This document shows, piece by piece, positions 6,048 through 7,871 of a stretch of DNA of 63,595 nt. A model generated the notes under the pieces. It saw nothing but the letters and a program-made list of their open reading frames with translations, was not told where the DNA came from and did not search any database. The position numbers were made by a program, and so were the translations under genes. The DNA comes from Escherichia phage vB_EcoS_HdSG1. The DNA lies in the sequence record MK373795.1, one strand, 5' to 3'. Every line of letters starts with the position of its first letter. The stretch's first letter is position 1.

Positions 6048-6271
6048 GCGATCCTACAAATGCGCAATTAGCCGCTGCAAGAGTGTATATGCGCGGAGCT
6101 GCCGCTGAGATTGATGCTTTGCCTCAATTTGAAAAGCATGTACAGCAACTTGAAGATAAATTCAAGACTCTTAAAGATCTAGGGGACACGAAAGACGCTA
6201 TAGCCTTTCTTCTTGCTATCCAATACTTGTCTATGGGGGTTGGTGACAAAGTATGTTCCTTAGAAGAATAA
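6044..6271 (+). CDS. hypothetical protein
   Basis: 75-aa ORF overlapping upstream stop. Confidence 0.5.
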   Translation: MSDPTNAQLAAARVYMRGAAAEIDALPQFEKHVQQLEDKFKTLKDLGDTKDAIAFLLAIQYLSMGVGDKVCSLEE

Positions 6272-6753
6272 TTGGTATGGTTGCACCTTGGATACCACTT
6301 GTCATAATTGTTATTCTAGCCAACTGGGCTTATGACAATGCCATAGAATCAGCTAGAAAGGAGGGTTTCGATGCCGGTGTGTCGTACCAAAAAGAAACTC
6401 AGAAAGCGGTTGATTTCGAGGAGGAGAAACGAAGAGCGTATGAGAAAGACACTATCGAACGTCAGTACAGATCTCGTATTGAATCTTTGGTTGCCGATCT
6501 TAATAATTATCGCGCTACTAATGACAGGTTGCACAACGAAATCGCAACCGTCCGTAAGTACCTCGGTGACGCTACCGGCCCTCAGCCCGACAGCAAGACA
6601 ACCGCCCAGATCGCCCGTGTGCTCACCGAGCTGTATTCAGAAAGCGTCACAGAATACAGACAAGTGGCAGAAGAGGCTGAAAAGTATCGTATTGCCGGCG
6701 AGCAGTGCGAGCTACAATATGATGCAATGCGAAATCCGCGTAAAGAAAAGTGA
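6253..6753 (+). CDS. i-spanin (Rz-like)
   Basis: N-terminal TM helix then charged coiled-coil-like domain; contains an embedded lipoprotein ORF in another frame. Confidence 0.65.
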   Translation: MFLRRIIGMVAPWIPLVIIVILANWAYDNAIESARKEGFDAGVSYQKETQKAVDFEEEKRRAYEKDTIERQYRSRIESLVADLNNYRATNDRLHNEIATVRKYLGDATGPQPDSKTTAQIARVLTELYSESVTEYRQVAEEAEKYRIAGEQCELQYDAMRNPRKEK

Positions 6754-6784
6754 TAAACTGCAAAGTCCTTGCCGGGTTGCGTAA
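6440..6784 (+). CDS. o-spanin (Rz1-like outer-membrane lipoprotein), embedded and extending past i-spanin
   Basis: ATG 6440 in another frame of i-spanin; signal peptide ending LLMTGC (lipobox-like), then Pro/Ser-rich mature region. Confidence 0.55.
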   Translation: MRKTLSNVSTDLVLNLWLPILIIIALLMTGCTTKSQPSVSTSVTLPALSPTARQPPRSPVCSPSCIQKASQNTDKWQKRLKSIVLPASSASYNMMQCEIRVKKSDKLQSPCRVA

Positions 6785-6875
6785 CTAAACGTTCAATCTT
6801 AATTACACATAATTGATTGTGTACATGTGATAATTCAACTATGCTCTATTCGGTTTAACTGAATGGAGCTTTTTT

Positions 6876-7310
6876 ATGACTGTGCAACCACGAGGTATCC
6901 GGAATAACAATCCGGGAAATATTCGTTGGGGTGATAACTGGAAAGGTCTTGTTCCAGAAAACAAACGAACTGACCGTTCTTTCTGTCAATTTATCGATGT
7001 AAAATACGGTATTCGCGCCATTGCGCGTATTCTACTAAACTACCGCAACCGCGAAGGAATGAAACGTGTTGGAAATAAAGGGATTGACACTGTACGGGAG
7101 ATTATTTCGCGCTGGGCTCCGCCAAATGAAAATAACACTGAAGCCTATATTCAATCTGTGTCTAAGGCTTGTGGTGTTGGTGCAGAACAGCCGATTTCAG
7201 TGACCGATGATAAAATCATGCTTGCAATCGTGAAAGCGATTATCAAACATGAGAACGGTGTGCAACCTTATTCTGATGAAGTTTTGCTCGCGGGTATTCA
7301 CATGGCATAG
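6876..7310 (+). CDS. putative endolysin (positional)
   Basis: 144 aa, soluble, between spanins and holin, RBS GGAG; no canonical lysozyme motif recognised by eye. Confidence 0.4.
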   Translation: MTVQPRGIRNNNPGNIRWGDNWKGLVPENKRTDRSFCQFIDVKYGIRAIARILLNYRNREGMKRVGNKGIDTVREIISRWAPPNENNTEAYIQSVSKACGVGAEQPISVTDDKIMLAIVKAIIKHENGVQPYSDEVLLAGIHMA

Positions 7311-7323
7311 TAAGAGGTTATAA

Positions 7324-7632
7324 GTGTCGCCGAATTGGGATTGGAATATAGTTTTTATTCTCACTGCCATTGCGATGGTAGGGGGTTCCCTTGGCTACGC
7401 TGCAAGAACCCATGATGCTAAAGAAAGGTTCAGACTCAGTGTCTTCATTCAAGAGGGTGCTTTTTCTGCATTCTTTGGTTTCTTGATAGGTGTAATTAAC
7501 GTGGAACATGGTGTCTCACTTGGGCTCAGTGGGGCGTTCATAGGCGTGTTATCTTGGTCCGGTTCAAGAACCATGCTAAAGTTTCTACGGAGAAAGACAG
7601 AAGCATGTGACCGAGAAAAGGAAAGAGGTTGA
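7324..7632 (+). CDS. putative holin
   Basis: GTG start with RBS AAGAGG; 3 predicted TM helices and charged C-terminus. Confidence 0.5.
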   Translation: MSPNWDWNIVFILTAIAMVGGSLGYAARTHDAKERFRLSVFIQEGAFSAFFGFLIGVINVEHGVSLGLSGAFIGVLSWSGSRTMLKFLRRKTEACDREKERG

Positions 7633-7634
7633 TT

Positions 7635-7871
7635 ATGCGTCACTTCATCAATGATCTTCTTATATTGTGTAAGAAACCGCGATTGCTTTTCATCTATATG
7701 ATGATTGGACTTGCACAAATTGGAGTCAGTGCTATCGCCATTGATCAGATGCACAAGAAACACAGGGCAAACCTGCAACCTTCAACACCACCTGTTTATG
7801 TGGTCAATAAGGTTGAACAAATCAAACAAGACATTCGGGAGATAACGTACATTCCTAAAGTTGACATGTAG
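7635..7871 (+). CDS. small membrane protein (holin or antiholin candidate)
   Basis: 78 aa, one TM helix, RBS GGAAAGAGG; last gene before terminator. Confidence 0.45.
   Translation: MRHFINDLLILCKKPRLLFIYMMIGLAQIGVSAIAIDQMHKKHRANLQPSTPPVYVVNKVEQIKQDIREITYIPKVDM

Follow-up and report, generated by a model that had tools for sequence, protein, structure and literature searches.

We analyzed a lysis cassette at positions 6253-7871 of a 63,595-nucleotide DNA stretch from Escherichia phage vB_EcoS_HdSG1 (MK373795.1); this whole stretch is called the window below. By open reading frame (ORF) listing and direct reading, we found five co-oriented genes in the region, all on the plus strand, which are predicted to encode an i-spanin, an o-spanin, an endolysin, a holin, and a 78-amino-acid protein (p78). 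A preliminary description of this DNA had proposed a cassette in the order spanins, endolysin, holin, and all of its coordinates were confirmed. The genes are as follows, where TMD stands for transmembrane domain and EAD for enzymatically active domain.

6253-6753, plus strand: predicted i-spanin (Rz-like, DUF2514 type), ATG to TGA, 166 amino acids; phrog_312, DUF2514, hydropathy, annotation in relatives, and SpaninDB.
6440-6784, plus strand: predicted o-spanin (Rz1-like outer-membrane lipoprotein), 114-amino-acid precursor in the +1 frame; phrog_11621, lipobox, conservation, and SpaninDB.
6876-7310, plus strand: predicted EAD-only endolysin of the PHA02564/Enc34 type, 144 amino acids; 7Q47 homology, AlphaFold2 model, Foldseek, and phrog_873.
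7324-7632, plus strand: predicted holin, LydA family (holin superfamily III), 102 amino acids, GTG start; PF16083 and phrog_785.
7635-7871, plus strand: p78, predicted single-TMD protein, 78 amino acids, TMD at about residues 17-36; phrog_16688 (function not assigned).

The cassette forms the 3' end of a transcription unit that runs rightward, directly before the terminase genes; a terminator stands 3' of it and is followed by the genes for the small and large terminase subunits. We compared 6000-8000 with phage genomes by blastn and found that 17 records span the full 2 kb at 94-99% DNA identity, all of them from Nonagvirus (Queuovirinae). The nearest record is HdK1 (98.6%); FritzHoffmann is 97.9% identical, and JenK1, 9g, and SE1 are also in the set. 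The window matches no single record exactly and shows few amino-acid substitutions relative to its Nonagvirus relatives. The same five genes are found in the same order in 9g, JenK1, FritzHoffmann, and ChristophMerian, at 94-99% nucleotide identity. In the BASEL records FritzHoffmann (Bas20) and ChristophMerian (Bas19), the i-spanin, o-spanin, endolysin, and holin are annotated with identical boundaries, including an o-spanin start at the equivalent of 6440. RefSeq re-annotations of nonagviruses list an Rz-like spanin, an endolysin, and a holin.

When phage 9g was described in 2014, the Rz-like gene alone was recognized; the complete lysis module was not identified, and an unusual lysis mechanism was considered possible (PMC4276943). 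The SpaninDB tables of Kongari et al. 2018 list for 9g (NC_024146) an i-spanin of 166 amino acids and an o-spanin, then unannotated, that reads MRKTLSNV...LLMTGC..., has the same start as the window ORF, and is given the architecture "ovl" (PMC6139136). The cassette is an already catalogued feature of a known genus, and later work closed the gap left by the 9g authors. Finding it here adds nothing new, as near-identical phages carry the annotation in GenBank, the 9g pair is in SpaninDB, and the endolysin family has structure and activity data; it is instead a worked example of how the 2014 puzzle of the 9g lysis module was resolved. From sequence comparison, we consider it very likely that 6253-7871 is the complete lysis cassette of a 9g-like Nonagvirus. 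The spanins, endolysin, holin reading is supported because profile matches, homology to a solved and assayed endolysin, and the annotation of near-identical phages all bear it out.

The preliminary description had noted the motif RNNNPGNIR in the putative endolysin and could not assign it to a classical lysozyme, amidase, or transglycosylase signature. The motif covers residues 9-17 (6900-6926), and the protein indeed has no match in Pfam and NCBIfam. It can nevertheless be assigned to the PHA02564/Enc34-type family. When we searched the PDB sequences with phmmer, residues 2-131 matched residues 4-137 of 7Q47, the catalytic domain of Hafnia phage Enc34 ORF39, at about 40% identity (E=7.2e-31), and the second match was Gp29 of 9VVP. 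The profile search gave phrog_873, "endolysin," at E=5.4e-64. An AlphaFold2 model, built on 35 homologues that are 56-78% identical to the window protein, had a mean pLDDT of 84.7 and consisted of five helices with no strand of at least 3 residues. Its best Foldseek match was 7Q47_A (E=2.2e-11, TM 0.80), and the only other related matches were the Gp29 chains of 9VVP. The modeled fold is all-helical and lysozyme alpha-lobe-like, and it has no beta-lobe. Trp79, Tyr95, and Glu131 of the Enc34 protein align to W80 (7113-7115), Y91 (7146-7148), and E126 (7251-7253), and these three residues, together with R9, N10, N12, P13, G14, N15, and I16, are invariant in the 35 homologues. The profile search and the structure prediction, which the preliminary description had suggested as checks, both point to the same family.

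Previous work by Cernooka et al. 2022 demonstrated that the PHA02564 domain lyses outer-membrane-permeabilized Escherichia coli, Pseudomonas aeruginosa, and Hafnia alvei, with 2,250-18,660 U/mg for Enc34 ORF39deltaC on permeabilized cells (PMC8943055). On structural superposition, the same authors found Glu131, Tyr95, and Trp79 at the positions of the catalytic residues of enzymes from GH73 and GH23; the family is a divergent relative of the GH73/GH23 lysozyme-fold enzymes (PMC8943055). Enc34 ORF39 (7Q47) and M4Lys of Salmonella phage BSPM4 have the catalytic domain, the fold, the N-terminal RGIRNNNPGNI signature, and the proposed Glu, Tyr, and Trp residues in common with the window endolysin. 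In contrast to these holin-independent enzymes, in which the EAD is joined to a C-terminal two-helix TMD, the chain of the window protein stops at residue 144, directly behind the final helix of the EAD. Because this C-terminal TMD is absent, we placed the protein in the catalytic-domain family only and not in the full-length Enc34/M4Lys architecture. Its maximal 17-residue hydropathy is 1.41, below the TMD threshold, and we found no signal, signal-arrest-release (SAR), or TMD segment in it. A SAR or secreted endolysin was ruled out, as the N-terminus is not hydrophobic. Sequence and model thus classify the protein as a globular, single-domain (EAD-only) member of the PHA02564/Enc34-type muralytic family. 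As it ends after the catalytic domain without a TMD, we expect classical behavior, and the enzyme is presumably cytoplasmic and holin dependent.

The i-spanin matched phrog_312, "Rz-like spanin," at E=5.6e-42 and Pfam DUF2514 at E=3.7e-11, above the cutoff. An N-terminal TMD is predicted from a hydrophobic span at about residues 2-27 (Kyte-Doolittle hydropathy, 2.73), in which the top 17-residue window starts at residue 6 (IIGMVAPWIPLVIIVIL). The rest of the protein is highly charged (26 K+R, 28 D+E), as is seen for a charged helical periplasmic domain, and the whole has the features of a type II inner-membrane protein. Its single periplasmic cysteine is C152.

The o-spanin gene starts at ATG 6440 in the +1 frame [(6440-6253) mod 3 = 1], contains 114 codons, and ends at 6784, 31 nt beyond the i-spanin stop. 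The preliminary description had called it embedded out of frame. The other frame, the start, and the run past the i-spanin stop were all as described, but an o-spanin that reaches beyond the i-spanin frame is termed "overlapped" rather than "embedded" (PMC6139136), and the architecture here is overlapped, since the o-spanin gene extends past the i-spanin frame. The predicted signal peptide is MRKTLSNVSTDLVLNLWLPILIIIALLMTG/C, ending in ...IIIALLMTG/C, and places the lipidated residue at Cys31 (6530-6532). It has a basic n-region (MRK), a 17-residue h-region, and the lipobox LLMTG/C, which fits the PROSITE-type pattern {DERK}(6)-[LIVMFWSTAG](2)-[LIVMFYSTAGCQ]-[AGS]-C. The residue at +2 is Thr and not Asp, as expected by sequence pattern for sorting to the outer membrane. 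The lipoprotein signal ending in LLMTGC was thus borne out, whereas the mature part, which had been described as Pro rich, proved only moderately so: it has 84 residues with 9 Pro (10.7%), 7 of them within the first 40 residues. Four further cysteines (C31, C35, C67, and C81 in mature numbering) are present in the mature protein, so that both predicted spanins have periplasmic cysteines available for predicted intermolecular disulfides.

To the profile search, the +1 ORF is a member of the o-spanin family phrog_11621 (E=1e-20); NCBIfam lipoprotein matches were far below their cutoffs, and Pfam and NCBIfam gave no usable match. We made 20,000 synonymous recodings of the i-spanin gene with local codon usage and found a Met-initiated open stretch of at least 105 codons in an alternate frame in 0.6% of them and an ORF of at least 60 codons running from a Met through a lipobox in 0.35% (p of about 0.004). 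Of 13 aligned nonagviruses, 12 have an intact ORF with its lipobox. Among more distant Queuovirinae, we looked at Klebsiella phages K9PH25C2 and K4PH164 and Escherichia phage Ec1-ASingh, whose i-spanins are about 33% identical to that of the window. All three carry a +1-frame lipoprotein ORF, with the lipoboxes LSLMGC, LSLTGC, and LLTAC. The mature window o-spanin is 43% identical (E=2e-21) to a lipoprotein of these distant Queuovirinae and has the stretch LSPxARQPxxxxxCSPxC in common with it. We regard this as the decisive evidence: the +1 ORF is read as a genuine o-spanin gene because it is conserved in distant Queuovirinae despite the divergence of the i-spanin. At the level of sequence, the +1 ORF is more than a chance open frame.

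We also considered the in-frame ATG at 6371 as the o-spanin start. The conserved MPV[CS]RTKK that follows from it is explained by the frame-0 i-spanin motif GFDAGV[SA]YQK, and we therefore kept 6440, which SpaninDB and the BASEL records use as well.

HdK1 (record L002, MK373794) has a 1-nt deletion at the equivalent of 6494, inside the spanin overlap, and differs from the window by this frameshift. The deletion joins the i-spanin N-terminus to the o-spanin frame, which is annotated as one 176-amino-acid ORF, and both normal products are lost. It is probably either a sequencing error or the mark of a spanin-defective isolate.

The homologous o-spanin genes are fully embedded in K9PH25C2 (record L014, 2449-2718), Ec1-ASingh (L008, 3209-3499), and K4PH164 (L019, about 1866-2159). 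In these three phages the gene ends before the i-spanin stop, and in Nonagvirus it ends 31 nt past it. The 2018 spanin census treated 9g as a singleton family and reported none in which embedded members stood beside overlapped or separated ones (PMC6139136). By sequence, the o-spanin family of the window spans embedded and overlapped architectures, which is a small update to that census.

The preliminary description had placed two small membrane proteins after the endolysin. Both are small and hydrophobic, and only the first could be identified as a holin. It matched PF16083 (Phage_holin_3_3) at 32.0 bits against a cutoff of 28.4 (E=1.4e-7), with residues 12-83 aligned to positions 2-73 of the 78 in the profile, and phrog_785, "holin," at E=1.2e-27. 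The GTG start is preceded at 6 nt by the Shine-Dalgarno (SD) sequence AAGAGG and lies 13 nt after the endolysin stop. Hydrophobic segments at residues 7-27 and 40-61, a weaker one at about 64-80, and the highly charged C-terminus RTMLKFLRRKTEACDREKERG suggest an N-out/C-in topology with three TMDs. We favored the GTG over the internal ATG of the 9g RefSeq record because the holins of K9PH25C2 and K4PH164, which start with ATG, have kept both the N-terminal DWDW motif and TMD1. The RefSeq record of 9g (L004, 1670-1927) and SE1 cut the holin to the internal ATG, with loss of TMD1. JenP1 (L006), PD328 (L007), and SP8 (L009) leave the holin unannotated; in PD328 and SP8, a spurious ORF on the minus strand is called in its place.

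All steps of the lysis mechanism that we propose are drawn from homology. The 144-amino-acid endolysin, a PHA02564/Enc34-type glycosidase without an export signal, would accumulate folded in the cytoplasm; its activity is expected from the homologues Enc34 ORF39deltaC and M4Lys, which have been shown to be active. The LydA-family holin would build up in the inner membrane and at a programmed time form lesions big enough to release the endolysin, which would then cut the glycan strands of the murein via Glu126, helped by Tyr91 and Trp80. Once the murein is gone, the spanin complex would fuse the inner and outer membranes and so destroy the outer membrane. Its two partners would be the i-spanin, a type II protein of the inner membrane, and the o-spanin, an outer-membrane lipoprotein that is read from the +1 frame and carries its lipid at Cys31.

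Lambda (S-R-Rz/Rz1) and P2 (lysB/lysC) likewise combine a holin and a soluble endolysin with a two-component spanin whose o-spanin is encoded in the +1 frame. In P2 the o-spanin gene runs past the i-spanin stop and is overlapped as in the window (PMC6139136). The order in lambda and P2 is holin, endolysin, spanins, whereas that in the window is spanins, endolysin, holin. The endolysin and holin families of the window differ from those of lambda, and we found no evidence of a dual-start holin/antiholin in the window. The holin matches the profile of P1 LydA (PF16083) above the curated threshold. LydA of P1 acts together with a SAR endolysin and the antiholin LydB; the window endolysin, in contrast, lacks a SAR domain, and we detected no homologue of LydB in the window. 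Seuratvirus (Seurat, SLUR25, VogelGryff/Bas25) has an endolysin about 64% identical to that of the window and a LydA-type holin, at the same place before the small terminase subunit gene. It differs in having an unrelated spanin pair after the holin, whereas the window has p78 alone in that slot and a DUF2514-type pair upstream of the endolysin.

The second small membrane protein, p78, starts at ATG 7635, 2 nt after the holin stop, with the SD sequence AAGAGG 6 nt before the start; some records use TTG 7629. A search with p78 gave 34 matches, all in Nonagvirus: 33 full-length proteins at 88-97% identity and one 57-amino-acid fragment. It is intact in 13 of 13 relatives, and its variation falls mostly at third codon positions. 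Pfam and NCBIfam gave no usable match, and p78 showed no similarity to known antiholin or holin families.

We compared the gene orders of the Queuovirinae around this slot. K9PH25C2 and K4PH164 have spanins, (a small gene), endolysin, holin, a short single-TMD protein, and the small terminase subunit. In Seuratvirus (SLUR25, yong3, VogelGryff), the endolysin comes first and is followed by the holin, the i-spanin/o-spanin pair, and the small terminase subunit. The unusual placement of the spanins ahead of the endolysin and then the holin is a lineage trait. The Seuratvirus spanin family is unrelated to that of the window (BLASTP E=0.046 against the window i-spanin). A short single-TMD protein follows the holin in three diverged clades, each of which has another complete spanin pair. 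We found that p78 (MRHFINDLLILCKKPRLLFIYMMIG...) resembles the N-terminus of the Seuratvirus i-spanin (MKTILNNFFSFIKTKPRLFIEYLMIG...; BLASTP, 8e-5; hhalign probability, 69%) and the K4PH164 post-holin protein (MKHLIQETKDLFQRPRLLIQYVVL...; BLASTP, 6e-6; hhalign probability, 86%), and the third score in this set of comparisons was 2e-6 by BLASTP and 81% by hhalign. No BLASTP similarity was seen between p78 and the K9PH25C2 post-holin protein, and a search with the K4PH164 post-holin protein found its own clade only. The motif M[KR]H.I...[KR]PRL[LF]I.Y followed by a TMD is common to p78, the K4PH164 post-holin protein (L019, 3212-3523), and the Seuratvirus i-spanin (L015, 3249-3725), which occupy the same slot.

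On the grounds of this pairwise and profile similarity and the strict synteny, we lean toward the view that p78 derives from an i-spanin that lost its o-spanin partner once a DUF2514-type pair had come in upstream. The likeness covers only about 35-60 residues, TMD included, and reaches hhalign probabilities of 69-86%, which counts against such a descent. We also weighed whether p78 is an active lysis regulator, for example an antiholin or a second holin that partners the LydA-type one, rather than an inert i-spanin relic. Its close translational coupling to the holin, with the same AAGAGG-N6 SD arrangement, and its preservation in all relatives argue for this, as does the presence of a short single-TMD protein in the slot in clades that each have another complete spanin pair. 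Furthermore, other phages pair this endolysin type with two small membrane proteins, as in BcepGomr, where two "holins" are annotated. Against a regulator stand the lack of similarity to known antiholin and holin families and the lack of a homologue beyond Nonagvirus by single-sequence search. We hold a regulatory role to be a tentative possibility, somewhat short of even. It is compatible with descent from an i-spanin, and the two ideas are not mutually exclusive.

We found a hairpin directly before the endolysin gene.

6843-6875, plus strand: hairpin and T6; 12-bp stem at 6843-6869 with a 3-nt loop, -16.4 kcal/mol, z=-8.1; T6 at 6870-6875.

The endolysin SD sequence GGAG (6865-6868) lies inside the 3' arm, and the T6 abuts the ATG at 6876 and doubles as the spacer between SD and AUG. 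The geometry thus resembles an intrinsic terminator in a terminator-like scan and occludes the ribosome-binding site (RBS). Among 12 close relatives, the hairpin is identical in 11, and SP8 has a substitution at the first base of the stem and lacks one T of the T-run. In four other Queuovirinae lineages, hairpins of other sequence bury the endolysin SD, so that the structure is kept and the sequence is not. They lie at about 2980-3011 in K9PH25C2 (L014), at about 2404-2443 in K4PH164 (L019), at about 2390-2455 in record L015, and upstream of 2450 in record L018. The stems of K4PH164 and both Seuratvirus lineages also cover the AUG and have no U-tract; the K9PH25C2/Ec1-ASingh lineage, with a GC-rich 11-bp stem and T5 at the same place, is the only other lineage with a U-tract. 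The predicted pairing probability of positions -16 to -5 is 0.71-0.98 for the five endolysin genes and 0.54±0.14 for 53 neighboring genes (Mann-Whitney p=1.3e-5, a generous value, as the lineages are not independent).

The sequence pattern suggests that the hairpin probably limits or delays endolysin synthesis, and by analogy it may be a translational gate like that of T4 gene e. In the leader of this T4 lysozyme gene, a stem sequesters the SD and/or AUG, and transcripts entering from upstream (early read-through) are poorly translated (PMC3014915). The T4 gene differs in having late promoters inside the 5' arm that give unstructured, translatable mRNAs; none was identified before the window endolysin. 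Our sigma-70 scan found fewer sites than in shuffled controls, none of them in the spacer at 6785-6875, and no convincing promoter downstream of the hairpin.

We considered whether 6843-6875 is instead primarily a Rho-independent terminator after the spanins, with endolysin and holin expressed from read-through or anti-terminated transcripts and no translational operator. The canonical 12-bp stem, 3-nt loop, and T6 are as expected for a terminator, and so are the stem and T5 of the K9PH25C2/Ec1-ASingh lineage. However, in K4PH164 and both Seuratvirus lineages the SD and AUG are covered by hairpins of equal stability that lack a U-tract, and RBS occlusion is therefore the feature common to all lineages. 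The double use of the T-run as SD-AUG spacer and the absence of a convincing sigma-70 promoter in the scanned regions also speak against termination as the primary role. We thus find that role doubtful, although some terminator function of the Nonagvirus hairpin is possible, and prefer the reading of the hairpin as an RBS-occluding element.

Three further observations concern the DNA around the hairpin. By hand inspection, an extended -10-like motif, TGTGATAAT, was seen at 6826-6834; it is not fully conserved among relatives and was not relied on. At 6804-6823, in the spanin-endolysin spacer, lies an AT-rich imperfect palindrome, ACACA-TAATTGAT-TGTGT, whose arms vary without consistent compensation. 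The motif ATGTGATA recurs upstream of the hairpin in K9PH25C2.

The observations on gene order, p78, and the hairpin can be combined into one scenario of nonorthologous spanin replacement and regulatory rewiring in the Queuovirinae. An ancestral order of endolysin, holin, and i-spanin/o-spanin, kept in Seuratvirus, may have gained a DUF2514-type pair upstream. The old o-spanin may then have been lost, and the old i-spanin may have shrunk to a single-TMD protein of 78-103 amino acids that was kept in three clades, presumably in a new role such as holin modulation. Hairpin-gated translation of the endolysin in all clades may be a timing device of the T4 gene e type in siphoviruses, and the incoming spanin family may hold embedded and overlapped members. 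We regard it as rather unlikely that all four parts hold together.

Several points weigh against our reading of 6253-7871 as a lysis cassette. The bond specificity of the endolysin family is unsettled: Cernooka et al. infer an N-acetylglucosaminidase, while muropeptide data for M4Lys suggested a glucosaminidase and endopeptidase (PMC8943055). The topology and hole size of the holin are inferred. In a dual-coding codon test, 10.8% of third positions vary in the spanin overlap, 12.5% in the nonoverlapped part of the i-spanin gene, and 35% in the endolysin gene, and low third-position variation is thus not specific to the overlap. The endolysin domain is also found inside virion proteins, namely, Kayfunavirus gp16 (internal virion protein D), tape-measure proteins, and Gp29 of 9VVP, and several GenBank records label the endolysin homologue a "structural," "virion," or "capsid" protein.

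The last two points would fit a virion-associated peptidoglycan hydrolase for genome entry at 6876-7310, with the true endolysin elsewhere or absent. The names "structural protein (P5)," "virion protein," and "capsid protein" are frequent among the annotations of homologues, and the domain is embedded in large virion proteins such as the phrog_7182 tail injection transglycosylase, the phrog_2276 tape-measure protein, the Kayfunavirus internal virion protein D, and the 9VVP Gp29 core protein. We found, however, that the "structural" labels go back to the uninformative name of the CDD entry PHA02564; these misleading labels are explained by the occurrence of the domain in virion proteins. The PHA02564-type domain is present in 767 phage records and serves as a free endolysin in Seuratvirus, lambdoid phiNP, Mu-like Pseudomonas phages, and BcepGomr. 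In phiNP the homologue takes the place of R, with a lambda-family holin on one side and Rz on the other, and in BcepGomr it lies directly before the holins and Rz/Rz1. The window domain is free-standing, with 144 amino acids and no attachment domain, and in each of the Queuovirinae lineages that we examined its gene sits with spanin and holin genes. In the approximately 54 of 59.8 kb of FritzHoffmann that we viewed (the first 50 kb and 56.3-59.8 kb), no further muralytic gene is annotated. A virion hydrolase is therefore very improbable, and we retain the assignment of 6876-7310 as the endolysin.

That 6440-6784 is a fortuitous open frame, with the outer membrane breached by the Rz-like protein alone or by another route, is scarcely credible: although the ORF is unannotated in most GenBank and RefSeq nonagvirus records, the HdK1 deletion destroys it as a separate ORF, and the third-position suppression is unspecific, these points are outweighed by its rarity among recodings, its invariant lipobox, the phrog_11621 match, the 43% identity to a +1-frame lipoprotein where the i-spanin is at about 33%, the call made by the SpaninDB curators, and the known bias of gene callers against overlapped o-spanin genes (PMC6139136).

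Three observations may be of interest for lysis specialists: the predicted RBS-occluding hairpin across the subfamily, the probable i-spanin remnant after the holin, and an o-spanin family that is both embedded and overlapped. These side observations bear on the control of lysis timing and on the evolution of overlapping spanin genes. As a free-standing EAD-only enzyme of 144 amino acids, the predicted endolysin is a compact candidate for endolysin engineering.

Downstream of p78, we found the predicted end of the lysis unit.

7886-7925, plus strand: predicted intrinsic terminator closing the lysis unit; 11-bp GC-rich stem AAAGCCCGCUC/GAGCGGGCUUU and U-tract, -18.7 kcal/mol, z=-4.7.

This terminator is also annotated in HdK1 and SP8. 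An Rfam scan of 5800-8200 at E of at most 1 gave a sole match, a sub-threshold P9 sRNA on the minus strand over the terminator, which we dismissed. Within the locus, nucleotide diversity is lowest (pi=0.020) at 7872-8000, the stretch that leads up to the gene for the small terminase subunit. This stretch may hold a promoter of the structural operon and/or packaging signals. It also contains TTGACA at 7921-7926 and a promoter-like TTGCAA-N17-TATATT (7944-7972).

On the upstream side, a conserved 75-amino-acid protein is encoded at 6044-6271 (phrog_19774), and its gene overlaps the i-spanin start by 19 nt. A homologue of HslV-family peptidases lies directly upstream of the cassette at 5365-5859 (phrog_1040, E=1.3e-34). 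We found that an HslV-like gene precedes the lysis genes in every Queuovirinae lineage examined.

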